A stretch of 64,000 bases of DNA from Candidatus Aenigmatarchaeota archaeon (GTDB taxonomy: Archaea; Aenigmatarchaeota; Aenigmatarchaeia; Aenigmatarchaeales; JACQIB01), in contig JAZDNN010000025.1 in assembly GCA_043799675.1 (NCBI GenBank), positions 1 to 64,000 on the forward strand, read 5' to 3'. Position 1 is the first letter of the stretch. Every line of letters starts with the position of its first letter. Position numbers and translations under genes: made by a program. Shown here piece after piece: positions 3,530 to 62,140 of this stretch. The notes beneath the pieces are model-generated. The model ran no database searches and was not told where the DNA came from. It worked only from the letters and a program-made list of their open reading frames with translations.

Positions 3530-3572
3530 GAGCAAGTCTGATTGCTGTTCTTAATAAGTCTGTCAGGATTTG

Positions 3573-3676
3573 CTAGAAATGCACGCAGCCGGCTGCGACG
3601 GATGAGCGCACTATCAGTGCGCACAGCCGGCTGCGACGGATGAGCGCACTAGAAGTGCGCACAGCCGGCTGCGACG
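3573..3676. repeat. 38-bp tandem repeat, about 2.7 copies, with internal palindromes
   Basis: Units at 3573-3610, 3611-3648 and 3649-3676 (consensus ctagaagtgcgcacagccggctgcgacggatgagcgca). Confidence 0.9.
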
Positions 3677-3678
3677 AC

Positions 3679-4047
3679 TCAGTGAGCGAAGCTCACGCAG
3701 TTCATGCAATAGGAGGCAATCACAAAGATTGCCGCCAGCAGGAACAGCCAGTAGATTGCCAGCTTCCTCTGATCGATTTTGTCCCCGACCCAGACCGCAA
3801 ACCCTATCCAGGCGGCAAAGAAGAAATCCAGCGGGACCGCCGGATACACGATGAGCCTGAACATGTCCTGCCCGTCCATCCACAGCCCCCACTCCAGCCC
3901 CGAGAAGCAGGCTGTGCTCATCAGCAATGCCATAACGAACAATTGTTTGCTTTTCCTGAAGTTCTGCCTGATTATCTGCCGGAACAGCAGGGCAGCCATC
4001 ACCCCCGCTATGATGGCAAACGAATAGCCGGCAGCCGAAGCTGACAT
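3679..4047 (-). CDS. small membrane protein (about 4 TM)
   Basis: Four hydrophobic segments. Confidence 0.65.
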   Translation of the reverse strand: MSASAAGYSFAIIAGVMAALLFRQIIRQNFRKSKQLFVMALLMSTACFSGLEWGLWMDGQDMFRLIVYPAVPLDFFFAAWIGFAVWVGDKIDQRKLAIYWLFLLAAIFVIASYCMNCVSFAH

Positions 4048-5025: not shown

Positions 5026-5055
5026 GCAAACAATCCTGTGGACAGGCATATAAAT

Positions 5056-5967: not shown

Positions 5968-5987
5968 TCAGACCATCGCACTGCCAA

Positions 5988-6983: not shown

Positions 6984-7013
6984 CTTACCCTCACCAGCAA
7001 TATAAATCACCAG

Positions 7014-9596
7014 TTACGGGCACGAGGTCTGTCCCGTGCCCGAGACGAACGTGATCGGTATGTCCTTCTTGACTGTATCCAGTACGTATTTGTAAGTGGC
7101 GCTTCCGGTTATCGCCAGCTGCTTCTGCGGCGCCGAGCCGATATCCAGACTTATCCTGAAGCCGCATGTCTTGTAGTTGTTCGGCTTGGCGGTCTTGGGG
7201 TCGACATCCCTTGCATTGCTTATGCTGCCCACGTCGCAGTACACCGCCTGTGTCCCTTCCGGCGGCGTGCCGCATTTCCCTGCCGTGTCCAGTTTTGCAC
7301 CGCCATTAAACACGGTCGCCTCTGCCGGCACGAAGATGCAGAAATCCACATTCTCCGCCCTTCCGTCCTTTGTGTTGGTCAGGCCCGCCGTGACAATGGT
7401 CTGGGCCCCGCTCTGTATGTATTTCGGCGTCCAGAGCGATGCAGTCAACGGCCCTCCGCTGTACTGGCTGACCACGCCCGCCTGCTGCGCCGCCGCGGTC
7501 GGGTCGAGCAGTATCCTCTTCAGCTCGTCCGCGCTCCTCACGTCGATGGCATACGTCGATTTGACGTTGTACATGTAGCTGGTCCTGAACGTTATTTCCG
7601 GGAACAGCCCGCGGTCGCACACCTGGTCCTTCCCGCAGGTGTTGGTGCCTTCTTGCCCCAGTTTCATTTCGTTGCATTTCCAGTTGATTGTAACCGTTCC
7701 CGCGCCCCTTGCCCCGGGCTTGAACACCCCGTCCCAGACGCATTTGTCCACATCAAGCCTGCCCCCGATGCAGCTGCTGCTGTCAAGGGTGATGGAGCCA
7801 ACCGATACCGGCGTCTTTGACTGCACTCCTTCCACACGGATTACGCTCGGGCCGTTCGGCATCTCCAGCTGGACGTTCTGCGCATCAAATTCTCCTGCAT
7901 TGGTGAACGTGAAGTACAGCGTCGAGTCCATGTACGGGTCGTATTCCTGCGGCCCGGTGATTTCCTCGAACTCGATGCTCTTGTCCGAGCCGACAGGCGC
8001 CGATGTCAGCTTTTCACATTTGAGCTTCTCCTGCGCGCACATGCTGGGCCCGTCGGTTATGCACGAATAGCTCGCCGCTGCCTCGCAGCTCCCTCTTGCC
8101 GCGGCATCATTGAGGGGCCCGAATATCGAATCCATTCCCGCCCCTACGTATCCCCAATATTGTCCGAACACGGCCGTGCCGACGGTGTCCGAGTAGGCGG
8201 CGCTGAACGAGAACACCGCGAAAATCATCATCACGCTGCCGATGTACGGCCTGCTGGTCCTTCCGCCCGTGACTCCGGTGACGATTGAAATCAGCCATAT
8301 CAGCGCAAGGGTGAGCTGTATCTGACCCGAACCCGCCATCCAGCTCCCTATCATCGGTATGCCGCCGAGCATCATGAATGAGATGAATATCGCCGTCCCG
8401 AAGTCCTCCCATCTCATCTGCTTCTGCCTGTCATCCAGGAATTTCCCTATCTTGCCGGTCCCGGTCACGCTTATCTTGATTTCCGTCCTCTTCTCGAACT
8501 CCTCCTTGCTCTCCCTGCCCGGAGTCACCGCATAGAAGGCCAGGGCGAAGAACATCAGGGACAGCTGGGGTTCGTTCACCGATACGAGCCATCCCATCGA
8601 TGTCACACCTACTACCAGCCCGATGGTCAGTATCCATTTCAACGTGGTGTTCTTCTCCAACGTGACATTGATGATTAACAGGAGCGCGAAAAGAATCGCG
8701 ATGAATGCTCCAGTGGTTGTGAACAGCGTATTAGTGAAGACCGTCGTTGCGTTCGGGCTCAGGAACGTGACCAGCAGGTAGGCGATGGTGACCCCTATTC
8801 CCGTTCTCAACCAGGCGGTCGCCGCCTTGTACGGCTGGTCTTGTTTGTAGCTCCCGGGCATCTTGAAGTACATTACGAACGCGAACACGAGCGCGACCAG
8901 CAGGCTGAGCCTCGAAAGGTCCAGCATCGCCAGAATGATTGCAAAGACCTCCACTACCGCCCTCGCATACAGCGGCCCGTAATGCTCGCCGGTGATTTCC
9001 AATTGCACGGCTTTGACGATGTGACCTTTCTCGCCCCTTTCTTGGCCCGGACATTCCGGCTTTTTACCGTTGTAGCGGGGGTTGCACTTTCCGCACTCGT
9101 AAATCGTGCTTTCGTCCATCATTTTTTTCTTAATGTCGTACTCGGTCGGGAACAGGTACAGGGCGCCCCACAGGACGAAAGCGACGCCGAGATAGGTCGC
9201 GGTTATCGCCGGTATCCCGAGCGCCGGTATCGCCGGCGTGCCTATCATGAACAGGCCGCCGATGAGCATCAGTACCATCAGCGGGAGCACACGGTTCTTG
9301 ATGTCTTTCCCAAAACCGTATTTGCTGATTAAATCTGACAGTGTCTTTTTTTCGGGTTTTTTTGGTTCCTCCGGTTCTTCTGCCGCAGGTTCGGCTACAG
9401 GAACCGGTTCATGCCGTTCCTCAAGCAATCGTTCCGCCTTCGTTGGCGGCGGATTAGGATTATAACGCCCCTCGAGTAACTCTTCTTCTTTGGTAGGCTT
9501 TAATTTTTTCTTGACTTTTCTGGTTCGTTTCGGTAGGCCCAGCCCTTCTCCTTCAGGTGGATATTCGTCCCCTTCGTGCTGAGGTCCTCCAGCCAT
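7014..9596 (-). CDS. large multi-pass membrane protein with a C-terminal family-A extracellular domain
   Basis: Roughly 10 or more hydrophobic segments, then a Cys-rich beta domain with YMYNV, GPLTA, TNTKDG, ATYKY. Confidence 0.8.
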   Translation of the reverse strand: MAGGPQHEGDEYPPEGEGLGLPKRTRKVKKKLKPTKEEELLEGRYNPNPPPTKAERLLEERHEPVPVAEPAAEEPEEPKKPEKKTLSDLISKYGFGKDIKNRVLPLMVLMLIGGLFMIGTPAIPALGIPAITATYLGVAFVLWGALYLFPTEYDIKKKMMDESTIYECGKCNPRYNGKKPECPGQERGEKGHIVKAVQLEITGEHYGPLYARAVVEVFAIILAMLDLSRLSLLVALVFAFVMYFKMPGSYKQDQPYKAATAWLRTGIGVTIAYLLVTFLSPNATTVFTNTLFTTTGAFIAILFALLLIINVTLEKNTTLKWILTIGLVVGVTSMGWLVSVNEPQLSLMFFALAFYAVTPGRESKEEFEKRTEIKISVTGTGKIGKFLDDRQKQMRWEDFGTAIFISFMMLGGIPMIGSWMAGSGQIQLTLALIWLISIVTGVTGGRTSRPYIGSVMMIFAVFSFSAAYSDTVGTAVFGQYWGYVGAGMDSIFGPLNDAAARGSCEAAASYSCITDGPSMCAQEKLKCEKLTSAPVGSDKSIEFEEITGPQEYDPYMDSTLYFTFTNAGEFDAQNVQLEMPNGPSVIRVEGVQSKTPVSVGSITLDSSSCIGGRLDVDKCVWDGVFKPGARGAGTVTINWKCNEMKLGQEGTNTCGKDQVCDRGLFPEITFRTSYMYNVKSTYAIDVRSADELKRILLDPTAAAQQAGVVSQYSGGPLTASLWTPKYIQSGAQTIVTAGLTNTKDGRAENVDFCIFVPAEATVFNGGAKLDTAGKCGTPPEGTQAVYCDVGSISNARDVDPKTAKPNNYKTCGFRISLDIGSAPQKQLAITGSATYKYVLDTVKKDIPITFVSGTGQTSCP

Positions 9597-49319: not shown

Positions 49320-49580
49320 ATGGAAAAGCCCAGGGATTTGCGCGTGTATGATAAAGACGAATGTCTGATGCTTACCGAAAAGGAGAAAAGGGAGATCATG
49401 CAGATGCGTAATGATGAGTGTTTTAGGGTCACCGAATACGACAAAAAGCCGCTTGTAAAGGATGATTGTGTGAGGCTCACAGAATCGGAGAAAAAAGAGC
49501 TCATGAAGCCGCTTGCTAACGATCACTGTCTGAGCCTCACCGAAGAGGAGAAAAAAATGTTGAAACGGCGGTATCTGTAA
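49320..49580 (+). CDS. small protein with four Cys-containing repeats
   Basis: RBS aggag; repeats DECLMLTEKEK, DECFRVTEYDK, DDCVRLTESEK, DHCLSLTEEEK. Confidence 0.65.
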   Translation: MEKPRDLRVYDKDECLMLTEKEKREIMQMRNDECFRVTEYDKKPLVKDDCVRLTESEKKELMKPLANDHCLSLTEEEKKMLKRRYL

Positions 49581-49641: not shown

Positions 49642-50001
49642 ATGTCCCGCCGCAAGCAGCCGTGGTTCTATTATTTCCAGATAGCCTTCTTTTTCTCCGT
49701 GGGCTTTTTCCTCTACCTGAAGCTGGGCTTTCCCGGTGAATGGGTGGAAGGGCTTGCCATCGGCCTGATAGTGGCCGGCCTCAAGCCGAAGCTGCAGAAG
49801 ATCCTGACGCCGTTCTTCCTGCTCGCCGTCATCATAGCAGCTGTCTTCGACCCCATCCTGAAGCCCTGGCTGGACGCAGCTCTGCATACGAACACCGTCT
49901 CAGGCCTGTGGTTCTCAATATTCGCCAACGTGCCTTTCTTTTTGTTCTACCTGGGAGGGCTCAGGTGGGGGAAGAGGATGCTGGGGAAGATGAAGAAATG
50001 A
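49642..50001 (+). CDS. membrane protein (paralog of 53078-53461)
   Basis: 4 TMs; near-identical protein at 53078. Confidence 0.8.
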   Translation: MSRRKQPWFYYFQIAFFFSVGFFLYLKLGFPGEWVEGLAIGLIVAGLKPKLQKILTPFFLLAVIIAAVFDPILKPWLDAALHTNTVSGLWFSIFANVPFFLFYLGGLRWGKRMLGKMKK

Positions 50002-50075: not shown

Positions 50076-50270
50076 TCATTCCCTTATTTTGTGCGTGCAG
50101 CCCTTCAGGAACTCTATCCCTATGAGGTTGTTATCTTTGTCATAGTCTACAATGATTTCGCAGTTCCTGAAGTCAAGGATGTGGTTCCCCTTCACCTGCC
50201 CCTTTCTGGACGGCATCAGCCTGGCATAACCCGTGCAATGCTTGTCAAATCTGATTTTTTGGTCTGTCAT
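50076..50270 (-). CDS. DUF2283-like small protein
   Basis: IIVDYDKDNNLIGIEFL. Confidence 0.7.
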   Translation of the reverse strand: MTDQKIRFDKHCTGYARLMPSRKGQVKGNHILDFRNCEIIVDYDKDNNLIGIEFLKGCTHKIRE

Positions 50271-50284
50271 CTTCAGCCCTTCCG

Positions 50285-50641
50285 TTATTTCTTCCTATAG
50301 CCGAATATCTTATCGTATTTCTTGTGGTCGCAAATTTCGAGAACATAGCATATCACTTCCACCTTGTTGCCGATAATCGTGTAAAGCAATCGCCAATATC
50401 CTGTAAGCTTTACTATCCACAGATTATTGACCGGAAGACCGGTCTTCCTTAACAATGGCTTTGAGATCTGACTACCATATGTAGGATCTTGCTTAAGCAA
50501 ATCGGCAATTCTTTGGATGGATTGAAATAATTGCTGGTTTTGTGAATTTTTGATGCCTTTCTTTTTCTCGTCATTGACTACTGCTTCCAGTCGTTTGTAT
50601 TCCTTCTCGGCCTCGCCCCGGAGTTCTACTATTATGCTCAT
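50285..50641 (-). CDS. RelE/ParE-like toxin
   Basis: DPTYG, NNLWIVKLTGYWRLLYTI, DHKKYDKIFGY; coupled to a small upstream gene. Confidence 0.7.
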   Translation of the reverse strand: MSIIVELRGEAEKEYKRLEAVVNDEKKKGIKNSQNQQLFQSIQRIADLLKQDPTYGSQISKPLLRKTGLPVNNLWIVKLTGYWRLLYTIIGNKVEVICYVLEICDHKKYDKIFGYRKK

Positions 50642-50892
50642 AATCTGATACCTGCCGTCTTTTCTATCATTTTTATGAATTTTGGATCGTTGTTTTCAAT
50701 CCAAACTATTCCTTTACTACCGATTACAATTGACCCCCTGTTCGCAAGATATGCAAGTACGAGCCTCAGTGTCTGGTCCATAATTTTCTTGGGAAGTTTT
50801 CTTTTCAACCCCTCTATGGACAGCGGTCCATCCGCCTCCTGTAGTGCCTTTTCTATCATCAGTACCGTTTTCAAGGTCGGCCAATGATACAC
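50638..50892 (-). CDS. putative wHTH antitoxin
   Basis: HWPTLKTVLMIE...LPKKIMDQTL...GIVWI; ATGA overlap with the toxin. Confidence 0.65.
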   Translation of the reverse strand: MYHWPTLKTVLMIEKALQEADGPLSIEGLKRKLPKKIMDQTLRLVLAYLANRGSIVIGSKGIVWIENNDPKFIKMIEKTAGIRL

Positions 50893-51047
50893 AACTCCAG
50901 TTATCTTTATGTTGATGTTTTTGGTTTCTTTTCAGGTTTCGTTCATACTTTCAAGCATACAATCACAAACATATATGTATATACACTTATATATAAAGTT
51001 AGTGTCCTAGTCAAAACCCTTATCAATCCCCTTCGCCATCAGCTTTC

Positions 51048-51152
51048 ATGCCCAAAGTCCCTGCCGTCAAGCCCCTGAAGCTCTCCCCCTCCTCGTTGAA
51101 CGCCTTCCGCGACTGCCCGAAGTGCTTCTGGCTGGACATGCAGCTGCGGTAG
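51048..51152 (+). repeat. displaced 5' fragment 1 of the nuclease gene at 57965 (34-aa mini-ORF)
   Basis: MPKVPAVKPLKLSPSSLNAFRDCPKCFWLDMQLR-stop. Confidence 0.9.
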
Positions 51153-51208
51153 AAGTGACAGTGAGATCATCCCGAAGCATATTTATTCCACCGATGTAAA
51201 TCGTTTTC

Positions 51209-51745
51209 ATGACACAAGCTCCGGCTGCTTCTGCCCCGGTCAAGTCCTTTGTAGGCGTGCATATGGAAAGCAGACCCTTAGTCTTCAAGAACGAGAATAG
51301 GGTTGCATTTGATTCTATGGTATTCATAGATTTGGTATTGACGGAAGCGGCCAGGCTGGAACTATTGAAACAATGGAAGAACGACCTGAAATGCACGAAG
51401 TTCTTCGTCTCAACAAAGGTCATAGACGAGACTTACGGTGTCCTGATAAACAAGTGCGGCAAGGATCCGGTTGACGCCAGGGCGGCCATAGCCAAAGTAA
51501 AGGAAACTCTGGATATGCGGGAACTGAAGTATGATAAGTCGGTTGACAATAAGCAAGGATTCGCGTTATTCAAGGAATATCAGCGGAGGTTCGGCTACGT
51601 GAATTTGGATGAGCATATCAATGACGGAAGGATAATAGCCCACCTTCGACGGGAAGGCATCAATGTCGTGTATTCAAGGGAAGAAAAGGTCAGAGAATTG
51701 GCCCGGATTGCCGGTATGGAAGCCAGAAACTTCATCTCATTTTAG
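51209..51745 (+). CDS. PIN-domain (VapC-like) nuclease
   Basis: VAFDSMVFI, KVIDE, NDGRIIA, VYSRE acidic pattern. Confidence 0.7.
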   Translation: MTQAPAASAPVKSFVGVHMESRPLVFKNENRVAFDSMVFIDLVLTEAARLELLKQWKNDLKCTKFFVSTKVIDETYGVLINKCGKDPVDARAAIAKVKETLDMRELKYDKSVDNKQGFALFKEYQRRFGYVNLDEHINDGRIIAHLRREGINVVYSREEKVRELARIAGMEARNFISF

Positions 51746-52006
51746 GTAAATCTCGTCAAAAATCTCAACGGCCTTTTCCTCGTTGTTGCCCGCCCTTTTC
51801 ATGGCTTCTTTCCATGCCTTTGCCCTTTCTTCCTTCATTGTTTCGTGTATTTTTGCCTGCGGTTTCACGTTCAGGGATGCCAGAATCTCGAATTCCATGA
51901 GTTCCCTCTCGCATTCCAGCGTCCTTTTGACTCTTTCCTCTAGGGCAGAGAACTTCGTATCGACGGTATTGACGACGGAGGGGACGGTTTGCGGGATCAT
52001 TGACAT
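51737..52006 (-). CDS. small helical protein convergent with the PIN gene
   Basis: ORF with 9-nt convergent overlap. Confidence 0.55.
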   Translation of the reverse strand: MSMIPQTVPSVVNTVDTKFSALEERVKRTLECERELMEFEILASLNVKPQAKIHETMKEERAKAWKEAMKRAGNNEEKAVEIFDEIYLK

Positions 52007-52170
52007 CGGTATACCTTAGTGCCACACCGACAAATTTAAAGTCGTCGGTTTCGCCGACGGCCATATGCAGATTCGTTGTTGTTTCAACGCATCATATAAC
52101 GCTGTTATTATTGATTTTCCAATTCATGACAGGTAAAAATCCTTATCAATCAGTTTTGTCATCTGTTTGC

Positions 52171-52281
52171 ATGCCCCCCTCAGCAGCCAAGCCCCCCAAG
52201 CCTCTGAAATTATCCCCCAGCAGCCTGAACGCTTTCCGTGATTGCCCCAAGTGCTTCTGGCTGGACATGCATTTGCGGTAG
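52171..52281 (+). repeat. displaced 5' fragment 2 of the nuclease gene at 57965 (36-aa mini-ORF)
   Basis: MPPSAAKPPKPLKLSPSSLNAFRDCPKCFWLDMHLR-stop. Confidence 0.9.
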
Positions 52282-52324
52282 AAATGAAACCCTTAGCAAC
52301 GGCCCGTCTCATGCTAAGGCGGTC

Positions 52325-53011
52325 CTATTTGAACATCATGTAGGTTATACCGACGGTTATGGCCTCGCCTACGATGAATGCGGCCAGTGCCGGAACGGAC
52401 CACATGCCCGAAGCATGTGTGCCTCTGATGCTCATGTCCGTGCATGCGCCTGTCAGGAAGCTCAAAAACGTGCCTCCGCCCAGAACATATCCCAATGCTT
52501 TCACCTCGACATCCGCATTTTTCCTCTCCCTTTCACTCCGTTCCCTTTCCATTTCAAGCTGCTGTTCTCTTATCACATCAGGACGTCTCATGTATGCTTC
52601 ATGTTCCGCGGATTGGGATTCGGACCCGTAAAACTGTTCATGAGCCATCTGCAGGCCAATTGACATGGCTTTCGGTGAGCTGTGCGATAATGCCTGTTGT
52701 ATTGCCTCCATATGCAGCTCTTGCCTGGTCTTGGGCGGCTCATGCTGCTTCTTGAGCTCCCGCAATTCTTTCATGTATGCCTGTCCTTGTTGCTCTAAAA
52801 CCGCTCTATCCGCCTGTCGATTTACTATCATCTGATAAGCGATTCTTGCACCATCATCAAGGGATTCCAGACTTGTCGTGGTCCTGCCATGCCGATTGTG
52901 TATTATAAGGTTCGTATAGCTTCCTCTACGTACCACTTCTATACGCTCGGCATCGAATATTTCATTGGCTGTAACGATAACAATCGCTCCAAACGGTAAC
53001 CAGCATCGCAA
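52325..53011 (-). CDS. hypothetical protein with two C-terminal TMs (start uncertain)
   Basis: Coiled region plus two hydrophobic segments. Confidence 0.55.
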   Translation of the reverse strand: MRCWLPFGAIVIVTANEIFDAERIEVVRRGSYTNLIIHNRHGRTTTSLESLDDGARIAYQMIVNRQADRAVLEQQGQAYMKELRELKKQHEPPKTRQELHMEAIQQALSHSSPKAMSIGLQMAHEQFYGSESQSAEHEAYMRRPDVIREQQLEMERERSERERKNADVEVKALGYVLGGGTFLSFLTGACTDMSIRGTHASGMWSVPALAAFIVGEAITVGITYMMFK

Positions 53012-53077
53012 ACCTTAAGAGCCTGACTCACCCGTGTTCGACAAAACCCTTATTACCCTCCCCTCTTAGTTTGTCTC

Positions 53078-53461
53078 ATGCCAAAGCGCAACCGTCCCTT
53101 CTGGAAGAGGGAAATCCCGCCCCGTACCTACTGGCTCTTCCAGATTGCTTTGCTCTTCTCCGTGGGCTTTTTCCTGTACCTCAGGCTGGGCTTCCCCGGC
53201 GAGTGGGTGGAAGGGCTTGCGATGGGCCTGATAGTGGCCGGCATGAAGCCCAAGTGGCAGAAAATCTTCACACCCTTCTTTTTGCTCGCCGTCATCATAG
53301 CGGCAGTCTTCGACCCGATTCTGAAGCCCTGGCTGGACCCATTGTTGCACACCAACACCGTCTCAACCTTATGGTTTTCCATCTTCGCCAACGTGCCCTT
53401 CTTTTTGTTCTATCTTGGAGGGCTGCGGTGGGGCAAGAGGATGCTGAAGAAAGCGCATTGA
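53078..53461 (+). CDS. membrane protein (paralog of 49642-50001)
   Basis: Near-identical protein with the same upstream aaacccttattacc promoter motif. Confidence 0.8.
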   Translation: MPKRNRPFWKREIPPRTYWLFQIALLFSVGFFLYLRLGFPGEWVEGLAMGLIVAGMKPKWQKIFTPFFLLAVIIAAVFDPILKPWLDPLLHTNTVSTLWFSIFANVPFFLFYLGGLRWGKRMLKKAH

Positions 53462-53553
53462 CAAAACCCTTATATCCCGCCCCGGTCAGCTTTCCTGCCC
53501 ACCTGATTTTAATAGTTTGGCACAGCATTCCTGATTGGTGAATATGATGACAG

Positions 53554-53820
53554 GTGCATTGCTTTGGGAAGGACGAGCTGAGGACGTTCCTAGAGCGATC
53601 TCTGTCTGAGCGCGAGAAGGACATTTTCTTACGTACCGCCGCATTGCAGGGAAACTCGGTGACGTCGGTCTCAAGGCTGCTTTCCGGTTATCCGCAGAGC
53701 ACCGCCAAGCTGATCCTCCGCCGCCTCAGGGGAAAGGGGCTGATAATCTATGCCGAAGGCCTGCCTCTCCGCTGCACCCCGCTGGGCAGGAAGGTCGCCG
53801 GCATTCTGGGGGCGGCATGA
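53554..53820 (+). CDS. winged-helix DNA-binding protein
   Basis: SVTSVSRLL...PQSTAKLILRRLRGKGLI...TPLGR. Confidence 0.65.
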   Translation: MHCFGKDELRTFLERSLSEREKDIFLRTAALQGNSVTSVSRLLSGYPQSTAKLILRRLRGKGLIIYAEGLPLRCTPLGRKVAGILGAA

Positions 53821-54777
53821 ATGGACATTCCGGAATACGTCAGGAGGTTCGTCGATGAGCAGGAGCTTGAGGTGGTTGAACGGTTTGGCAGCGGCAACTC
53901 CGGGGCGCTGGTCTACAGGGTGCGGACGGGCGGAAAGGATGCCGTGCTGAAGATGGCCTCGGGCGGGAGGGGGCTGGACGAGATAAGGGGGAACATTGCC
54001 GGCTATGAAAAGATCAGGGAGGCTCGCCTGGAGGAGATATTGCCGGAAGATATCAGGGTCTACGCGGACAAGGACTTCACCGCAATCCTGATGGAATACC
54101 TCGGGGACAGCTTCTACGACCGTACGCTGAAGGAGCCCGAACCTACTGGTCTTTACAGGGAACTGGCCGGTTCGTTCAGGCGGTTGTGCGAACGGACCGT
54201 GAGGAAGGACGATGAGTCCAGGCGCATGCTGGTGGAGGTGAAGGACAACCTCCGTGCAAAGTACGAGGACTTCCTTCTCGGTGAGGGATACATAGGAAAA
54301 CAGGATGTCGGGCTGCTGGATTCCGTGGACACTGATGCCCTTTCCCCGGATTTCAGTTCGTTCGGCTGCTACGATTTCACGCCCGAGGACGTGTTCCTTG
54401 TGAATGGCAGGCTGAAGTATCCTGACCCGAAGCAGGACGTGCGCGGCTGCCCTCTCATTTCGTTGGCGGCTTTTGCGGGCGTCTCGCGGGATTCGTACGG
54501 CCTGCCCGGTTCGGAGGAAGGCTACGGGGTGCTGGAGCGATTGGCTGTAGAAGACCTTCCAGAGCTCTTGCACATAAGTCAGCCCAACGCCCGCAGGCTG
54601 TTCTCGTTGGGCCGTGCCATGCAGCTGGCCATCTCGTCCAAGTACAGGATAGGGACCGACCCCGGGAAGGCAAAGCTGTTCGCCGCCGGAAGTGTTGACT
54701 GCCTGGCTCATGTTCTGGAATCACGACCCTCAACGATGGGGGCACGTCCGGTGGGAGGTGAGAAGAATGGGATCTGA
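53821..54777 (+). CDS. atypical protein-kinase-like (APH-type) phosphotransferase
   Basis: GSGNSGALVY, AVLK, ILMEYLG, YDFTPEDVFL, YPDP. Confidence 0.7.
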   Translation: MDIPEYVRRFVDEQELEVVERFGSGNSGALVYRVRTGGKDAVLKMASGGRGLDEIRGNIAGYEKIREARLEEILPEDIRVYADKDFTAILMEYLGDSFYDRTLKEPEPTGLYRELAGSFRRLCERTVRKDDESRRMLVEVKDNLRAKYEDFLLGEGYIGKQDVGLLDSVDTDALSPDFSSFGCYDFTPEDVFLVNGRLKYPDPKQDVRGCPLISLAAFAGVSRDSYGLPGSEEGYGVLERLAVEDLPELLHISQPNARRLFSLGRAMQLAISSKYRIGTDPGKAKLFAAGSVDCLAHVLESRPSTMGARPVGGEKNGI

Positions 54778-55177
54778 TGATAAGGAGCTGGCGAAGTTCG
54801 ACAGTTTCATGGGGCCGCTCGTCCTCGATGTACGGCGTGCGGAACAAAGGTCGGAAGCTGAGAAGAAGTACTGCCGCATGAGGGACGGGAGCAGCGGCTT
54901 CTGCAGGCTGTTCAAGCTGTCTCCGCGGGAATGCGACAGGGAAGTGACCGAATCAACGGACCTCGCGCAGGAGTGTTCCGCATACGGCAACCATGTGCGT
55001 TTCATAAGGAATTGCAGCGAGCGCGAGACCAGGACGGTGACCGTGAAGTCGCCCGTCTGCGGCTATGCGGACATGGAGGCGGATGTAACGTACTGCAAGT
55101 TCCAGGACAAGCCCTGCGATGACTGCGGTGTGCGTCCCAAGCATACCGACTCGTACTGCGCGATGATGAACGACTGA
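54767..55177 (+). CDS. Cys-rich hypothetical protein
   Basis: RBS ggaggtga; about 10 Cys. Confidence 0.6.
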   Translation: MGSDDKELAKFDSFMGPLVLDVRRAEQRSEAEKKYCRMRDGSSGFCRLFKLSPRECDREVTESTDLAQECSAYGNHVRFIRNCSERETRTVTVKSPVCGYADMEADVTYCKFQDKPCDDCGVRPKHTDSYCAMMND

Positions 55178-55193
55178 AGGTGTTTTCGGGAGG

Positions 55194-55221
55194 GGAAGCA
55201 GGGCCCGCTTCCCTCTTTTTT
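55194..55221 (+). terminator. hairpin plus T-tract terminator
   Basis: gggaagc...gcttccc followed by tcttttt. Confidence 0.6.
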
Positions 55222-55359
55222 ATCCCGCCGGACTTTGGTCGGGCAGGAGGATGCTGGGGAAGTGACCCTCTACCGTTAGTTTTATATACTACTAAGGCGT
55301 AATTAAGAAGTGTCCGATAGCATCGTGCGAAAGGTCAGCCGTATAATGTTCTTGGTGAA

Positions 55360-56346
55360 ATGATGTTTGAAAGACCTATCGACGGAAACGGGATGTCAAT
55401 GACCCCCGTCGGGTACAAGTACATGGAGCCCGGCTGTTACATGAAGGACTACGGATTCAGCGGCAGGAGCGGCAATGATATTCCCGGACCGGCGATGATA
55501 GTTACCGAACCTCTTTACCACGCGGACTGGTTCCAGATGGCAGCCAAGGATGCACAGGCCGCCATGGACCATTACAATGCCAAGGCCGCGATAGAGGACG
55601 CCTATCACAGGAAAACGGATGCCTGGTGGCAGGCCCAGACCGATCAGGGCGCTCTGGAAGGGATGATGGAAGAGATCGCTCAGATGCACGAACGCGCAAG
55701 GTGGCGCGACATGAACAGGCAGATCGGCCGCCTGCTGGTTGAGAATTCTGACATGAAGATTACCGACGCCTTCAGGGAGGCTCTGCAGGTCAGCAATATA
55801 GAGGACAAATACCCCGAGGACGAGCCCGTGACAATTTATTTCCCGCACGAGAGCCAGCCGGAGGAAGTATCCTATGATACCTTCGTTCAGAGCATTGTGA
55901 TACCGGTTGAACATTCACTCCTTCTTGCCCTGAGGGGCAGGAAGGTCTACGACCGGTCCAGAACCGAATATACAAAAAATCTCGGATGGGGCGAGATATT
56001 CGGCACGGAAGGCGAGCATTTTCACATAACCGTCCCGAACCCGCCTACCATACAGGAACTCATAACCCATAACAGGGAGACCTGGGGCAGGATACACGGC
56101 ACATGGGACGTCGTCAAGGCGCAGCGTGCCTTGGGAATAAATCGTGAGCATTCGTTCGGGCCCGTGTCCGGCACCCTGGAAGCAACGATAGTGGTTGACT
56201 CTCTCAAGAAAATGGGTTCCTTGGAGCGCAGAGTGGAAATCAGTTCCGTAAAACTGGACGATTACAAGACCCCGTGGGGTACGTACGACCTGCAAAAGAT
56301 GGTAAGTGATTGCGGTGTCGACCTGAGAAAACTGAGGAAGAAGTAG
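55360..56346 (+). CDS. hypothetical protein
   Basis: Long ORF with RBS ggtga and TATA tttatata upstream. Confidence 0.65.
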   Translation: MMFERPIDGNGMSMTPVGYKYMEPGCYMKDYGFSGRSGNDIPGPAMIVTEPLYHADWFQMAAKDAQAAMDHYNAKAAIEDAYHRKTDAWWQAQTDQGALEGMMEEIAQMHERARWRDMNRQIGRLLVENSDMKITDAFREALQVSNIEDKYPEDEPVTIYFPHESQPEEVSYDTFVQSIVIPVEHSLLLALRGRKVYDRSRTEYTKNLGWGEIFGTEGEHFHITVPNPPTIQELITHNRETWGRIHGTWDVVKAQRALGINREHSFGPVSGTLEATIVVDSLKKMGSLERRVEISSVKLDDYKTPWGTYDLQKMVSDCGVDLRKLRKK

Positions 56347-56353
56347 TGATGTC

Positions 56354-56764
56354 ATGGCAAGCGAGGAAGAAATAGAAAATGCGTTGGCAAGCATCCCGTA
56401 TATGCGGCTCGCGGAGGCCGCAAAAAGTGAAATGCCCATCAGGACGTTCAAGGAGAACTACGAATGGTCCAATTGGGCATGCCTTTCGCAGACGCGCACA
56501 AGGTATTACGAGATAGAAGGGGTGGCAAAGCAGGCGCTTGCCGCGTTCTACAGGATGAAACTGCGTGCACCTGAGGACATAGTGGACAGGGTGATGGCGA
56601 ACATGGTAGACCTGAATTACTTGCGCGAGCATGCCAAGTCCGGCATATGCTGCGCCCCGGCTTCGCGCAGTTTTCACGAGTATTCCGATTCCGTTGAATT
56701 CACGCCGAGAAGACTGACGGAAGAGGACAGATGGCCGAGCAACGTCATGGAATTTCTGGTGTGA
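56354..56764 (+). CDS. hypothetical protein (tandem paralog 1)
   Basis: MASEEEIENALA...GICCAP...EEDRWPSNVMEFLV. Confidence 0.7.
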   Translation: MASEEEIENALASIPYMRLAEAAKSEMPIRTFKENYEWSNWACLSQTRTRYYEIEGVAKQALAAFYRMKLRAPEDIVDRVMANMVDLNYLREHAKSGICCAPASRSFHEYSDSVEFTPRRLTEEDRWPSNVMEFLV

Positions 56765-56773
56765 AGTGACGTT

Positions 56774-57188
56774 ATGGCAAGCGAGGAAGAAATAGAAAAT
56801 GCATTGGCAAACGTCCCGTATCTGCAGCTCGTGAAGGCCGCAAGGAATGAATTGCCCACTTAGAAGATTCCAGGAAAATTACAGCTGGCATTCTTGCCTT
56901 ACAGGGGATACCCCGTTAAGGTTTTATGAAATAACAGGCGTAGCAAAGAAGGCACTGGCCGCATACTATAGAATAAAGGTGCGAGGGCCTGAAGATGTTG
57001 TGGAAACAATAATAGAAAATATGAAGGATTTGGGTTTCATACGAGAACATAAACGGGAAGGAATCTGTTGCGCCCCGCCTTACCGCAGCGACTTTCGTGG
57101 TTGGGATGGGGGTTATCCTACCTTCCATCCATGGAGACGCGTCGATGAAGATAATTGGCCAAGCGACGTTATACAATTCTTAGTATGA
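56774..57188 (+). pseudogene. tandem paralog 2 with a +1 frameshift near 56855
   Basis: MASEEEIENALANVPYLQLVKAARNELP then stop; removing one C restores LRRFQENY...WPSDVIQFLV. Confidence 0.75.
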
Positions 57189-57225
57189 AGCTCTTCGTCA
57201 AGAAATCCTTATATCCCGCCCTCGT

Positions 57226-57423
57226 TCATTCCCGCTGCTCTTCCTCTTCCTCTTCAATCAGTTCCACCGGTTTGCCCCTCTTGCCCCAGCTCACCGCGCT
57301 CTTCAGCTCAAGGCGCCATATCCCGCCGTCCTTCCATATCACGTTCAGCTCGCCGGTGAACCCGTCCCTCTTCATGCCTTCCAGGACCTGTGAATTGAAC
57401 AGCCCTATCTGTCTGGCCGCCAT
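57226..57423 (-). CDS. small hypothetical protein
   Basis: GFTGELNVIWKDGGI; start uncertain. Confidence 0.45.
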   Translation of the reverse strand: MAARQIGLFNSQVLEGMKRDGFTGELNVIWKDGGIWRLELKSAVSWGKRGKPVELIEEEEEEQRE

Positions 57424-57661
57424 TTCCGCATCGTGATTCCTGCCTCCCCTCATAACAAGCACCGGAAGATAGCTGAAGGATAGCTTGTACCGGTGGATTA
57501 TGGCGTTTTGGGTGAGGCAAACTCAAGGTTGGGACAAGGAGGTTGGAAAAGGCATTGACGAGGTCAAGGAAAAGGAAAAAATAAAATTTCCAGAAAAACG
57601 GCAGTTGACGCTGGATGATTCGTTCACAACAACTTTTCTTTTTCGGCGCGAGCATACTAGC

Positions 57662-57934
57662 ATGAGTATCGACCGCGAGATTGCAAAAGCCATTGGGGTC
57701 ATTGGTTTTATTGGCGTAATGATTTGGGTAATATCCAGTCTACCATGTCTGTTGAAACCTAACGATACATGCATCGGCTCCGTGATAACCGGAGCCGTCG
57801 AAAACAGCGTCCCAGCGATAGTATCAGTGGCCGAACCTGCATCCTTGAGCTCAACAGCAGCAATTATCATCGCTTTAGTGATTGCTGCCATTGTCATCTT
57901 TCTTCCAAAAACATGGAAGGCGCTTATAGACTGA
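57662..57934 (+). CDS. small 2-TM membrane protein
   Basis: Two hydrophobic segments. Confidence 0.55.
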   Translation: MSIDREIAKAIGVIGFIGVMIWVISSLPCLLKPNDTCIGSVITGAVENSVPAIVSVAEPASLSSTAAIIIALVIAAIVIFLPKTWKALID

Positions 57935-57964
57935 ATTTATCAATCAGTTTTGTCATTTGCTATC

Positions 57965-58639
57965 ATGCCCTCATCCCCCTCCGTCAAGCCCCTGAAGCTC
58001 TCCCCCTCCTCCCTGAACGCCTTTAGGGACTGTCCGAAGTGCTTCTGGCTGGACATGAACGGGAAGGGCGCGCCCCCGGGCTTCCCTATGGCCCTTCTGT
58101 GCGTGATGGACGGGATCCAGAAGCGCTATTATGACAGCCACAGGGCGGAAGGCCTGCCGCCCATGCTCAAGGGAAAGGTGCCCTTCAAGCTGGTTGATTT
58201 GGAGACGGCCGAGAAGCTGCGTCACTATATAACATGGAACGATGAACAGACCGGGGCCGTCCTGAGGGGTAAGATGGACGATTGCTTTATCGACAGGGAC
58301 GGCACGCTCGTGGTCATGGACAATAAGACCAGGAGCGGCGAGTTCAAGGAGATCTATGACGGATACATGTTCCAGCTTGACACCTACGCCTTCCTGCTGG
58401 CCAAGAACGGGTTCAAGGTCGGAAAGACGGGCTATATCGTGTATTTCGTGCCCGACAAGGAAAGCGACATGGAAAAGGGCGTGAAGTTTGACGTTGATGT
58501 TAAGTCCGTGGAGCTGCATCCCGGCCGCGTGCTTGGGGTGTTCCGGGATGCCGTAAAGCTTGCCCGCCAGGCAAAGCCGCCTGCCAATCACAAGGAGTGC
58601 GAGATGTGCGCCTGGGTCGCCAAGATGGGGGAGATGTAA
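57965..58639 (+). CDS. Cas4-like / RecB-type PD-(D/E)XK nuclease (solo)
   Basis: LSPSSL...CPKCFW, LRGKMDD, VMDNKT, QLDTY (QxxxY), C-terminal CEMC. Confidence 0.85.
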   Translation: MPSSPSVKPLKLSPSSLNAFRDCPKCFWLDMNGKGAPPGFPMALLCVMDGIQKRYYDSHRAEGLPPMLKGKVPFKLVDLETAEKLRHYITWNDEQTGAVLRGKMDDCFIDRDGTLVVMDNKTRSGEFKEIYDGYMFQLDTYAFLLAKNGFKVGKTGYIVYFVPDKESDMEKGVKFDVDVKSVELHPGRVLGVFRDAVKLARQAKPPANHKECEMCAWVAKMGEM

Positions 58640-58816
58640 ATGTTCAAGCCTGCCCCCTTGCATTCCGCGGCTGCAAGGCTGCCAGCGGGCACTCCTGCTG
58701 AGTGCGAATGTCGGCGGTGGATTCAAGCTGTTGGGGAGATGTAGAGGCGGACGTGGTAAATGTAAGGATTAATAACGGGCGAATGCTACGTAGGAAGTTG
58801 AAAGGAGAGGTAGAGC

Positions 58817-61800
58817 ATGGATTTAAATATTCAAGCACTTTTAGAAAAATTCAAAGAAGGGTTAACATTAGACGGTAGAAAGAAGGTTTTTGAAGATGGG
58901 TATAAACTATCTTCAGATTCTTTATTACAAAAATCTGATCCAGAAGCTTTTACCAAAGATTTCCTAGTAGGACCTGTACTCAATATGTTTGAGTTGTCAA
59001 AACTAACAGAGAGACATTTCAGAGGTATTACAGGAGAGTTAAGAAAAGTTGATTATTTATTAAAAAACCAAAAGAACATATCGTTTTTAGTCGAAGCAAA
59101 ATCTTTAAATTCAGATCTTTTTGAAAAAGGACCGGATGGAGCAGTAAATCAGATTCAAGGATTATTCAGGCTCGCAGAAGTAAAGGAAAATTATAAGTTT
59201 GGTATAGCGACAGATGGATTGAAATGGGTTTTCATTGACAGAAATTCTAAAGTCGTTTTTCGGTTGGAATTGATCAAGGAATTGAAAAAGATTAAAGAAA
59301 TATTGATAGGGAAAGAAGAAGTTTCATCTGAAAGGATAGAAGAAGAAATTAGCAAGAAATTTTATGAGTGGTATAACGCCCTACTACATGGCGGAAAATA
59401 CAAAGACCATGAAAACAAAGTAAGAAAAATTTCCATTAAAGATTGCTTCGTCGAAAACATTCTGTTTGCATCAATTCTAGAAGAAAGAGAACAGATAGCC
59501 CAAACAATAATGGATAGACTGATTTTCATAAAATTCTTGCAGTCGAAAAATATCGTTGGTTATGACATTCTTGATTATCTAATAAATCTCGATGAAAACA
59601 TCCTTAATGAAAAAATAAAACAATTATTTTTTTCTGTTCTAAATACAAAGAAGGATGAAAGATCAGATATTGATACAAAATTCAAAAATGCACCATACCT
59701 TAATGGTAGTTTATTTGTAAGAACAGAAGTAGAACTCAAAAACCCTGACTATAAGATTAAAGCCTTCATATTGAAAGAAGTTATAAGATTCTTGAATTCT
59801 TTCAAATTTGTTCATACCGAAGATGTTTCAAATCACCAAATTTTAGACCCGGAGATTCTTGGATATATTTTTGAGAAAGCAATGACAGCAAAAGATAGAA
59901 AAGGAACTGGTGCTTACTATACCCGTAAATCAATAACAAATTACATTTCTGAAAATACGATACATCCAGTTATTGTAAAAAATGTAAATAAACTATTGAA
60001 AGAGAAGGGCTACAAAGATTCTGAATTTTTAAAAGATGTTGAACAGGTTTACAGTTTGAGGGAATCTACACTTGGAGAAGTTTTTAGTCAAGTAATCCTT
60101 AACTTGAAAATATGCGACAATGCCTGCGGTTCTGGTGCTTTCTTATTGGCAGCCGCAGACGTTCTTTTGGAAGTTTATAGTAGAATAAATGGGGAATTGA
60201 GGTTAAAGAATTCAGAAATAGCAATGAGAAAGCTGATTTTGAAGAATAATCTTTACGGTGTTGATATAAACCCAAATGCCATCGAAATAGCAAAATTAAG
60301 ATTATGGTTGTGGCTTGTTACAGCTTACGAACCAGAAAAAGTTGAACCATTACCTAATATTGATTATAATATAAGAGTTGGAAACAGCTTGATAGGTTAT
60401 ATCAATATAAGCAGATTCAAAGAACATAAACTAACACTTCTTGACTGGTATAGTGCTGAAAAATCATTAAACCTGATGCTGAAAAAGAGAGAAGAAATAA
60501 TACAGAAATATAAAGATGCTGTCGGGGATAAAGCAAGAGAATTAAAAAATGAAATAGACGAGCTTGACAGAAAAATAAAGAAGCTTCTTGATATCAATTT
60601 ATTCCAGGAAATAAGTAAAAAAGCCGATATAGGAGAAGAAGAATTTAAAAAACTAATTCCATTCCATTGGGGATTTGAATTTTACGATGTTTTCGATGGT
60701 AATGGCGACAAAGGTTTTGATGCTGTTATAGGAAATCCGCCATATTTCAAAATCTTCGAGAAAAACATAATCAATAAAACAAACGAATATGAAGAAATTA
60801 AAAGTGGCATGATGAATGCAGCTGCTATTTTTGTTAATCGAACACTTAATTTAACTGACCGTTCTGGTCACGTAGGTATGATAGTTCCAAAAATGTTGGC
60901 TTTCACAGATTCGTGGGACAAAATTAGACAGAAGTTATTAAGAAATTTTACCATGGAAAGAGTAATCGATTGTGGCAAGGCCTTTAAGGGTGTACTTCTA
61001 GAACAAGTAATTTTCATTTTGGATAAATCACCGTTTTCTGAGAAGCATAAAATAGTTATAGGGTACATAGAAGATGGTAGAATCACAGAAACTGCAAAAG
61101 TGATGCAAAGTTTATGTCAAGAAGAAGATGGAATTTATCTCGAACCGAATCAGAAGGCATATTACATAAAAGAAATACTCGAGAAGTCAAAAATCAGATT
61201 AGTAGATGTTTCAGATATTACACTTGGCTTAGGAATACAGGGTAAAAAAGATGTTTTTGTTGAAAGATATCAAAAATGTTATAATAAGGTGCTTCGTGGT
61301 AATGATATTCAAAGGTACTATATCAGAGGATGTAAATTCTATGATCCTAATGACAAAAAAATAGGTGAATATAAAAAAACAATTGAGAAATTTAAAACTC
61401 CTCATATAGTAGTGCAAAGAATTGTGGCCCATATAAGAAACCATATAAAAATTACCGCGGCATTGGATATGGAAGGTATTTTTTCATTCAATACGGTTAC
61501 AAACATCTTTATGAAAGATAAACAATATGACTTAAAATATATTTTGGCTATTCTAAATTCAGATGTAATTCAATATTATACTTATAAATTTATATATAAA
61601 AACGCTATCAGATCGATGGATTTTTATAAAGCATATGCTGGAAAAATACCATTACCAAAAGTAACAGATTCTCAGCAAAAAGAAATAATTAGCTTAGTAG
61701 ATAAAATGTTAGAATTATCAAAGACGTCAACTGAAAAGAACCATAAAACAAATAATGAAATCGAAAAAATAGAAGAATATATTAATGAAATTATTTACTC

Positions 61801-61855
61801 ACATTATGGTATCGGTAAGGAAGAGCAAGAAACCATAAAAGAGAGTTTGAAATAA
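58817..61855 (+). CDS. Type IIG fused restriction endonuclease-methyltransferase (Eco57I/TaqI-like)
   Basis: VDY...VEAK nuclease, GAYYT, DNACGSGAFL, GNPPY, C-terminal TRD; strongly AT-rich. Confidence 0.92.
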   Translation: MDLNIQALLEKFKEGLTLDGRKKVFEDGYKLSSDSLLQKSDPEAFTKDFLVGPVLNMFELSKLTERHFRGITGELRKVDYLLKNQKNISFLVEAKSLNSDLFEKGPDGAVNQIQGLFRLAEVKENYKFGIATDGLKWVFIDRNSKVVFRLELIKELKKIKEILIGKEEVSSERIEEEISKKFYEWYNALLHGGKYKDHENKVRKISIKDCFVENILFASILEEREQIAQTIMDRLIFIKFLQSKNIVGYDILDYLINLDENILNEKIKQLFFSVLNTKKDERSDIDTKFKNAPYLNGSLFVRTEVELKNPDYKIKAFILKEVIRFLNSFKFVHTEDVSNHQILDPEILGYIFEKAMTAKDRKGTGAYYTRKSITNYISENTIHPVIVKNVNKLLKEKGYKDSEFLKDVEQVYSLRESTLGEVFSQVILNLKICDNACGSGAFLLAAADVLLEVYSRINGELRLKNSEIAMRKLILKNNLYGVDINPNAIEIAKLRLWLWLVTAYEPEKVEPLPNIDYNIRVGNSLIGYINISRFKEHKLTLLDWYSAEKSLNLMLKKREEIIQKYKDAVGDKARELKNEIDELDRKIKKLLDINLFQEISKKADIGEEEFKKLIPFHWGFEFYDVFDGNGDKGFDAVIGNPPYFKIFEKNIINKTNEYEEIKSGMMNAAAIFVNRTLNLTDRSGHVGMIVPKMLAFTDSWDKIRQKLLRNFTMERVIDCGKAFKGVLLEQVIFILDKSPFSEKHKIVIGYIEDGRITETAKVMQSLCQEEDGIYLEPNQKAYYIKEILEKSKIRLVDVSDITLGLGIQGKKDVFVERYQKCYNKVLRGNDIQRYYIRGCKFYDPNDKKIGEYKKTIEKFKTPHIVVQRIVAHIRNHIKITAALDMEGIFSFNTVTNIFMKDKQYDLKYILAILNSDVIQYYTYKFIYKNAIRSMDFYKAYAGKIPLPKVTDSQQKEIISLVDKMLELSKTSTEKNHKTNNEIEKIEEYINEIIYSHYGIGKEEQETIKESLK

Positions 61856-62140
61856 ATGCCCTCATCTGTACCCCAAACCGTCAAATGCCCCTTCTGCCAA
61901 GTCGGCGACATAACGGTCTTCATCAAGGAAAAGTCATTCTCGACCAAAAAGACCCGCTGCCGGGCAGGTCGCAGCTCAACGACTACCGTTCATCATGCAC
62001 GGATGGAGGCCCTAAATGACTGCCCCTCCTGTCATGCTTCCAAAAAGGATATCGAATCCAAGCTCAAGGGCAGCAAATCAATGTCCGCCTCCGATGCAGC
62101 CAAAAGGGCCCAGGCGGCCGGCTTGCCGACGCGCATATAG
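61856..62140 (+). CDS. small zinc-finger protein (anchor of the 3' repeat array)
   Basis: CPFC...CPSC, ends KRAQAAGLPTRI. Confidence 0.8.
   Translation: MPSSVPQTVKCPFCQVGDITVFIKEKSFSTKKTRCRAGRSSTTTVHHARMEALNDCPSCHASKKDIESKLKGSKSMSASDAAKRAQAAGLPTRI

Follow-up and report, generated by a model that had tools for sequence, protein, structure and literature searches.

Displaced starts of a Cas4-like nuclease gene suggest insertion of small, integrase-less cassettes in a DPANN archaeon

Why should a nuclease gene in a small archaeal genome be preceded by two further copies of its own beginning, each running into unrelated genes? The question is raised by contig JAZDNN010000025.1 of Candidatus Aenigmatarchaeota archaeon (assembly GCA_043799675.1), of which we analysed positions 1 to 64,000; this whole stretch is called the window. 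The source assembly is a draft of 748,753 bases in 45 contigs and is 83% complete. It is labelled G000 here, other G numbers stand for other DPANN genomes, and L numbers denote homologous loci. An intact gene for a Cas4-like PD-(D/E)XK nuclease sits within a restriction-modification and toxin-antitoxin island of this DPANN archaeon, and upstream of it lie two displaced copies of its promoter and first codons. We favour, with moderate confidence, the reading that small integrase-less cassettes were inserted by reciprocal recombination in the stretch coding for CxxCFW, each of them restoring the nuclease gene. The array has the following parts.

51012-51140, + strand: displaced 5' end, copy 1, with BRE/TATA-like AAAACCC-TTATCAATC (TATA at 51020-51028), ATG at 51048, 31 codons and the core at 51120-51140
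51141-51158, + strand: tail 1 (CAGCTGCGGTAGAAGTGA), the left end of putative cassette A, with codons QLR and TAG at 51150-51152, closing a miniature open reading frame (mini-ORF) at 51048-51152
51141-52142, no strand: cargo of putative cassette A, a PIN-like gene and its convergent partner, a unit of ~1.1 kb
52143-52269, + strand: displaced 5' end, copy 2, TATA-like at 52143-52151, ATG at 52171, 33 codons, core at 52249-52269
52270-52287, + strand: tail 2 (CATTTGCGGTAGAAATGA), the left end of putative cassette B, with codons HLR and TAG at 52279-52281, closing a mini-ORF at 52171-52281
52270-57936, no strand: cargo of putative cassette B, ~10 ORFs, a unit of ~5.8 kb
57937-58639, + strand: intact Cas4-like PD-(D/E)XK nuclease gene, TATA-like at 57937-57945, ATG at 57965, core at 58037-58057, stop at 58637-58639

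The promoter-like motif, the ATG and the gene start are present three times on one strand (51020-51140, 52143-52269 and 57937-58057). They are direct repeats, and the term mirror-image array used in the original prediction, which had been made from the letters alone, is therefore dropped; its coordinates for the three gene starts with their promoter motif, shared residues and 21-nt core were confirmed, as were its intervals of 1129 and 5788 nt, measured from start to start. At 51020, 52143 and 57937 the motif TTATCAATC is followed by an ATG exactly 28 nt on (51048, 52171 and 57965). We read it as the probable TATA box of a leaderless archaeal promoter, because its spacing coincides with an AT-rich signal that 481 long ORFs of the genome show between -28 and -23 relative to the ATG. 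All three copies encode the same 24 residues, KPLKLSPSSLNAFRDCPKCFWLDM, and the 21-nt core AAGTGCTTCTGGCTGGACATG occurs three times in the window against 0.00 expected (100 shuffles) and is absent from the rest of the genome, even with 3 mismatches allowed. Fragments 1 and 2 both diverge from the intact gene immediately after ...GACATG and continue with CAGCTGCGGTAGAAGTGA and CATTTGCGGTAGAAATGA, respectively, which agree at 15 of 18 positions and contain an in-frame TAG, so that mini-ORFs of 34 and 36 aa result; the earlier claim that both fragments leave homology at the same base and enter a shared tail was thus borne out. Past these 18 nt the two are unrelated, and exact matches to the tail decamer TGCGGTAGAA are found in the window only at the two tails.

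A comparison of synonymous and non-synonymous change among the copies, which the original prediction had named as a check, gave synonymous differences only. Within the 24 shared codons the pairwise differences number 14 (copies 1 and 2), 6 (1 and 3) and 15 (2 and 3), and none is non-synonymous. Only ~21% of random single substitutions in these codons would be synonymous, and the chance of such a pattern is ~5e-10 if all changes were neutral and ~2e-5 if half of them fell on a neutral, unconstrained fragment. Because all differences are synonymous, the copies do not look like decaying local duplicates; the pattern suggests that the three 5' ends evolved in working genes as separate alleles, or that the peptides themselves were selected. 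The core is unchanged even though 10-11 of the 17 codons directly upstream of it differ between copy 2 and the others (P ~0.006-0.012), and its positions are matched in 12 homologous genes at only 11-18 of 21. This identity amid upstream divergence, together with the poor match in homologs, argues that the core is kept or homogenised at the DNA level, as a crossover region would be. The intact 5' end is a mosaic, with a promoter like that of copy 2 and codons like those of copy 1 (45 of 51 nt identical, vs 36 of 51).

The RNA at the three junctions folds no better than shuffled sequence (z = +1.3, +0.3 and -0.7), so that neither a hairpin site nor a terminator nor a motif of the splicing type is supported; the ideas of trans-splicing or of a bulge-helix-bulge (BHB) link were dropped. 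We also dropped the idea that the fragments are internally deleted genes, with the N-terminus joined to the C-terminal M-x-x-x-stop, since the tails are unlike the 3' flank of the intact gene and an LR ending occurs in none of 44 aligned homologs. An imperfect inverted repeat, CTTCT...AGAAG, spanning the junction was seen by eye only and is not used as evidence.

The arrangement could be reached by the successive insertion of cassettes A (~1.1 kb) and B (~5.8 kb) into the 5' end of the nuclease gene. Each cassette, probably circular, would bear at one end a leaderless promoter and the first ~31 codons of a nuclease allele, and at its other end the short tail. Reciprocal crossover in the short identical stretch encoding KCFWLDM would join cassette and chromosome. 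The resident promoter and N-terminus would stay behind as a shortened mini-ORF continuing into the tail of the cassette, and the cassette-borne promoter and N-terminus would then head the intact gene. Two rounds would yield the order fragment, A, fragment, B, intact gene. The circular intermediate, the order of events and the enzyme are inferred. For the last, a trans-acting site-specific recombinase and homologous recombination of the host over 16-90 nt of identity both come into question, and we make no choice between them. Homologous recombination fits as well as a site-specific reaction and would also explain the mosaic 5' end and breakpoints that vary.

The same layout is found in other DPANN genomes. 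Screens with an N-terminal profile of the nuclease picked out 76 of 371 same-class genomes at E<=0.01 and, in a second DPANN class and at E<=1e-4, 89 of 401, and a 5' fragment, 0.6-6 kb of cargo and an intact gene follow each other on one strand in G345, G737, G756 and G498, which represent two classes. In G345, which has three copies, the duplicates are found 2.2 and 4.6 kb upstream and measure 88 nt (98.9%) and 47 nt (95.7%); its cargo comprises two MNT/HEPN pairs together with an AAA_14 ATPase, and HNH, NERD and type IIG restriction-modification genes are found downstream. The cargo of G737 measures 1483 nt (DUF5678, an aspartyl-protease-like protein and DUF2283) and has type I HsdM/HsdS upstream of it; 10 of 21 shared codons differ there, all synonymously as read by eye, and the 16 nt adjoining the break are identical. 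G756 contains 575 nt with a HicB-like gene and HicA (8.5e-15), and has a 32-nt identical block. In G498 the cargo of 774 nt encodes a toxin resembling YoeB/ParE together with its partner, and HsdR lies upstream. The idea, already part of the original prediction, that an incoming cassette supplies a promoter and an N-terminus is supported by the synonymous-only divergence, the identical core and this recurrence in four genomes.

Orphan fragments, with no intact gene nearby, occur in G012, G127, G190, G205 and others. In the arrays and G012 (six genomes) the breaks fall at positions ~17, 21, 21-22, 23, 25 and 26-27 of the N-terminal model, around CxxCFW; the other orphan fragments break at positions 36-53, and the third G345 copy after 6 codons. 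The CxxCFW region is a hotspot of breakage, with no single base conserved. No extra N-terminal fragment was found in 27 metagenome loci and 2 genome loci that hold homologs. A likeness between the window tail and the tail of the G345 fragment (TGGACAT...AAATGAA) was noticed by eye; the reading frames differ, and it is not used here.

The cargo of cassette A consists of two genes.

51209 or 51263 to 51745, + strand: PIN-like gene, 160-178 aa
51737-52006, - strand: its partner, 89 aa, convergent and overlapping

A PIN nuclease with a partner had been placed in this interval by the original prediction; the partner gene stands, and the PIN label for 51209-51745 is only a lead. The protein has no match in Pfam or among solved structures. 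The lead comes from the Atlas (0.92, with PIN on 26% of cluster members), from a homolog in G120 that reaches 18.6 bits, below the PIN cut-off of 23.6, and from D, E and D residues conserved in a three-sequence alignment; the AF2 model (pLDDT 56) is too poor for a fold search. The PIN-like gene and its convergent partner were found in only 2 other genomes of the 371 in the class, G023 (57%) and G120 (53%), neither of which gives a match to the nuclease N-terminal model. In G120 (L141, G120:C10) the pair lies between ~118-nt direct repeats of another local sequence (5620-5737 and 7187-7303), which have a variable 19-nt centre; the locus gave no match to a tRNA or to Rfam. A neighbouring AAA_14/DUF4143 ATPase gene in the same locus lies between the 3' end of a gene for a 1206-aa surface protein (3541-3684) and a 144-nt copy of that end (97%; 5462-5605). 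In G023 (L140, G023:C20) the interval 4580-8358 has 32-36-nt promoter-like repeats (GCATTTAAATCC...TATAATTATG) between several small genes, the PIN-like pair among them. The cassette A cargo appears to move as a unit, and repeat-flanked minicassettes at gene ends seem to be more general in these archaea. The nuclease cannot be needed in cis for such minicassettes.

Cassette B is larger, and its ORFs are as follows.

52325-53011, - strand: ORF without family match
53078-53461: membrane protein, paralog of 49642-50001
53554-53820: winged helix-turn-helix-like protein
53821-54777: APH-like kinase (Atlas 0.98)
54692-55177: ORF
55360-56346: ORF
56354-56764 and 56847-57188: tandem paralogs, 52% identical in amino acids, first 94 nt 86% identical, no family match
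57226-57462, - strand: ORF
57485-57934: ORF

About nine accessory genes had been predicted for the second interval; there are ~10 ORFs in 52270-57936, and none of them exceeds a cut-off in Pfam, PHROGs, NCBIfam or PADLOC.

Several results weigh against the insertion of mobile cassettes. No SSV-type integrase, tyrosine or serine recombinase, or Cas1 was found in the cassettes or the genome; PF00589, PF16795 and PF00239 had no match in the 83% complete genome, and control genomes gave matches. PF00589 genes are present on other contigs in G345, G737, G756, G023 and G120, and none was found in G012, G498 or G000. No empty site, excised circle or second cassette B was seen in the material used, which consists of assemblies in which the closest relatives extend <=760 nt upstream. 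The architecture is rare: of 67 intact-gene loci, 2 (the window and G345) show at the DNA level an upstream duplicate of the 5' end, and the screen of 401 genomes gave three further arrays. The original prediction had itself held that breakpoints varying among relatives, or a tail absent elsewhere, would speak against it, and both were found in part. Breakpoints are not the same between genomes, being spread over ~10 codons (positions ~17-27; orphans 36-53). The tail GCGGTAGAA, expected in related genomes, has an exact match in none of the others among the 371 same-class genomes, its one-mismatch matches are at about the control level, and no exact match was found in the homologous loci compared, apart from copies of the window region. 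Of the site-specific insertion point first proposed, the clustering of breaks around CxxCFW remains, and the single base does not; the site-specific character is not established, because no recombinase was found in the cassettes or the genome.

A wider reading, which we offer tentatively and regard as doubtful, is that of an integrase-independent, integron-like cassette platform in DPANN archaea, in which the promoter and gene-start module (~50-130 nt) is itself the recombination site. Toxin-antitoxin and defence cassettes, each with one copy of the module, may circulate between genomes and may stack at the start of the Cas4-like nuclease gene, or at other gene ends in genomes without the nuclease, and some of them may be expressed from the displaced promoters. 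The exchange would fall to homologous recombination of the host or to some enzyme that has escaped recognition, for which even the nuclease, acting on the 5' end of its own gene, is conceivable. Integron arrays consist of small, mostly recombinase-free cassettes, often encoding toxin-antitoxin systems (in which chromosomal arrays can be rich), which are stacked beside a fixed gene and of which some are expressed from the promoter of the site, and integrons have reportedly been found in archaeal metagenome-assembled genomes. The array studied here resembles them in the size and content of its cassettes, in their stacking at one site beside a fixed gene and in the placing of some of them where the promoter of the site could drive them. 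It differs in that no IntI or other tyrosine recombinase and no attC-type hairpin was seen in it, and in that what is repeated is a promoter together with a gene's 5' end, each insertion duplicating the promoter.

Mobile cassettes may not be needed at all. Illegitimate or one-sided homologous recombination with the DNA of relatives, or local duplication followed by gene conversion, could have built the array if selection retained only those outcomes in which the nuclease gene was intact; we consider this unlikely. The content of cassette B speaks for it and against dedicated cassettes, for the membrane-protein genes at 53078-53461 (127 aa) and at 49642-50001 (119 aa), the latter to the left of the array on the chromosome, are paralogs that share 300 nt at 84% (78-81% in amino acids), and two of the genome's five promoters of the rare AAACCCTTAT type lie in this cassette. 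Cassette B may thus be chromosomal DNA of a relative and not a dedicated mobile element. The mosaic intact 5' end agrees with such an origin, a nuclease remnant at 58640-58744 and a degraded nuclease copy in L017 (both described below) point to frequent, messy recombination at the nuclease gene, and the G345 copies are almost identical, so that local duplication fits there too. What this explanation does not readily accommodate is that two independent fragments break at one base and have a common 18-nt tail, that an identical core adjoins the break in the window, G737 and G756, that the PIN-like pair is flanked by repeats at unrelated sites in G023 and G120, and that breaks cluster around CxxCFW in six genomes.

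Alternatively, the mini-ORFs of 34-36 aa with their CxxC motif could be genes in their own right; they might, for example, regulate the nuclease, as the original prediction had allowed, compete with it, or provide the cargo with leader peptides. In that case the copies would owe their intactness to selection on the peptides, and a single ancestral mini-gene would have passed on the common break and tail. In both fragments the frame is open, the ATG is present and the promoter-like motif stands at the correct distance; selection acting on the peptides would account for this too, which is a further point against cassette insertion. The 24 shared codons hold no non-synonymous change, the stop context [QH]LR-TAG is common to both, and at 4 of the 7 junctions in the different genomes the next gene downstream points in the same direction as the displaced promoter, as judged by eye from ORF tables. 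The conserved residues, however, are exactly those of the full-length family, as expected under selection on the whole enzyme. Fragments elsewhere end variously in unrelated tails, with 7 to ~50 codons, the tail motif was not found in other genomes, and no short protein sharing words with nuclease residues 1-40 appeared in a set of 5.8 billion proteins, in which such ORFs are rarely called. We judge this explanation to be improbable.

A programmed switch of the shufflon or phase-variation kind, in which silent 5' cassettes recombine with the expressed gene and alter its promoter or expression, would be suggested by three co-oriented copies with differing promoter sequences and one protein sequence, and by the mosaic intact copy. 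We hold it to be very improbable. Direct repeats lead to deletion and not to inversion, no recombinase was found in the genome, the same 24 residues in all copies leave no protein variation, and the intervening DNA is wholly different between genomes. An assembly artefact joining strain variants of the nuclease gene is scarcely credible, although the genome is a metagenome-assembled draft of 45 contigs, since a chimera would run on into nuclease sequence, whereas here the core is followed by a shared tail of non-nuclease sequence, then by a stop and cargo genes. In addition, the identity extends over just 21 nt, and the architecture is also present in four independently assembled genomes.

Insertion of cassettes that rebuild their target has known relatives, and restoration of the 5' end of a target gene is already known in bacteria. 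Passages of PMC8409611 describe dusA-specific integrative and mobilizable elements (IMEs; IMEVchUSA3) and SXT in prfC, where the element supplies the promoter and N-terminus of the target; the comparison with SXT/R391 integrative and conjugative elements (ICEs) in prfC and with dusA IMEs draws on excerpts of PMC8409611 and PMC2791158. As far as these excerpts go, the likeness extends to insertion within the 5' coding end, supply of a new promoter and an N-terminus of ~35 residues, a 5' fragment displaced to the element's far end, a short core that is identical at both junctions and the possibility of tandem occupancy of one site. In the window the target is likewise regenerated with a replacement promoter and N-terminus, the displaced 5' fragment lies at the other end, and an identical core is present at all junctions (21 nt, three times, unique in the genome); an element-encoded tyrosine integrase or directionality factor was not found, no recombinase family having a match in the cargo. 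The bacterial elements, by the same excerpts, measure 20-100 kb, carry their own tyrosine integrase and recombination directionality factor and move by conjugation, whereas the units here measure 0.6-6 kb and no recombinase was found. The old and new N-termini of dusA are 61% identical as given there, whereas the protein sequence is identical here, and dusA and prfC are core genes, whereas the target here is a patchy accessory nuclease gene of a DPANN host.

The cis-mobilizable elements (CIMEs) and the streptococcal site-specific accretions, as described in PMC5704250, are units bounded by att-like repeats and devoid of integration genes that stand in tandem at the end of one target; CIMEs are thought there to be decayed ICEs or IMEs mobilized by a related integrase-bearing element at the same site. 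Repeat-flanked units without integration genes are stacked at one target in the window too, and no integrase-bearing helper was found in G000 or at the site. CIMEs, as portrayed in that source, target 3' ends and replace no promoter, whereas the 5' end is used here and the promoter is replaced. The principle of Islander for islands in tRNA and tmRNA genes, that a regenerated target and a displaced fragment delimit the insert (part of PMC4383910), applies here as well, with the difference that the target is the promoter and N-terminus of a protein gene; no tRNA gene lies in 44-64 kb of the window, neither tRNAs nor known RNA families were found as insertion targets, and no integrase was found.

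The nuclease ORF (57965-58639) encodes 224 aa and matches PF12705 (2.5e-12) and phrog_31195 (8.3e-23). It has a PD-(D/E)XK core with four cysteines of the cluster-binding type, as in Cas4; in an alignment of 44 homologs C212 is invariant, C23, C26 and C215 are nearly so, and the KLSPS...CxxCFW motif is invariant or nearly invariant. The Cas4 family cut-offs are missed (PF01930, 16.8 bits vs 22.7; TIGR00372, 21 vs 65), Cas1 has no match anywhere in the 83% complete genome, and the best matches among solved structures reach only E 0.002-0.007. In viral contigs neither a nuclease relative nor the core-plus-tail pattern was found. The gene is patchily distributed: 10 of 61 relatives (<=38% identity) and, within the same order, 6 of 42 genomes have a match. 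Homologs from metagenomes are up to 75% identical, and the sources of homologs bear the names Pacearchaeota, Woesearchaeota, Aenigmatarchaeota and Nanoarchaeota.

The genes and remnants around the array are listed next.

50076-50892, - strand: left flank, with a DUF2283 protein, a RelE/ParE-like 118-aa protein (named by eye) and an 84-aa partner
58640-58744, + strand: decayed remnant, the last ~35 codons of another nuclease allele (BLASTP 2e-4; missed by the C-terminal hidden Markov model)
58817-61855, + strand: type IIG restriction-modification enzyme, ~30% G+C vs ~55% in the genome
61856-62140, + strand: 94-aa zinc-ribbon protein

The remnant begins directly after the stop of the intact gene and ends in ...ECE-CRRWIQAVGEM-stop, and GGGGAGATGTA is common to both at the DNA level; from this position, the 3' end of the nuclease gene was therefore also once a recombination junction. 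A second, internally deleted nuclease remnant (...MDNKTRGF joined to PPAKHEECEMC...) was observed in L017 at 2573-2758, 1.2 kb downstream of an intact homolog that is 71% identical to the gene of the window. Nuclease homologs in L119 (G325:C11, ~8410-8598) and G758:C6 each have a single in-frame TAG, which in L119 stands exactly at the W of CFW, so that the ORF ends in ...CPRCF.

Homologs of the left-flank genes lie near the nuclease gene in 4 other loci. The low G+C content of the type IIG gene suggests that it was recently acquired. Besides the window, 5 other loci (L029, L019, L031, L100 and L074) have a type IIG gene close to the nuclease gene, with only ~25-31% mutual identity, and zinc-ribbon homologs of 61856-62140 are present in the nuclease loci of 4 other genomes. 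The nuclease, the type IIG enzyme and the zinc-ribbon protein could form a conserved defence neighbourhood.

The 10-mer AAACCCTTAT occurs only 5 times in the whole genome (47323, 49608, 51014, 53044 and 53464), always on the + strand and within 6.2 kb. An ATG follows exactly 34 nt later in 4 of the 5, and 3 of those genes start with ATGCC(C/A)AA(G/A) (MPK). It looks as if a promoter module has been duplicated across the island, and the array may extend from 47.3 kb. Two other sets of repeats were observed in the region. Four tandem repeats of ~48-60 nt at 49341-49556 lie in a 123-aa ORF and give D(E/D)C..(L/V)TE.EKK motifs. A 34-nt repeat at 62105, 62700, 63176 and 63794 (~480-620-nt spacing) encodes a C-terminus of the ...A(Q/K)AAGLPTRI type, a pattern suggestive of small paralogs in a row downstream of the restriction-modification gene.

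A literature search of limited scope (few term sets, by which absence is not proven) returned no account of minicassettes that lack an integrase, carry toxin-antitoxin or defence genes and are stacked in a Cas4-like nuclease gene's 5' end, nor of such 5'-end restoration in DPANN archaea. The genomes of these archaea are tiny and hold few mobile elements that can be recognised, and little is understood of how defence and toxin-antitoxin genes are gained and shuffled there. The window locus and its four counterparts point to a repeatable addition of blocks of 0.6-6 kb in which the target gene stays unbroken and no recombinase is visible. If the mobility is true, displaced gene starts would provide a rule for finding the borders of islands in such genomes, the array would offer a set of natural leaderless promoter modules, and a new recombination route in archaea would have a candidate. 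If the mini-peptides are made, they would represent a new class of nuclease-derived small proteins.

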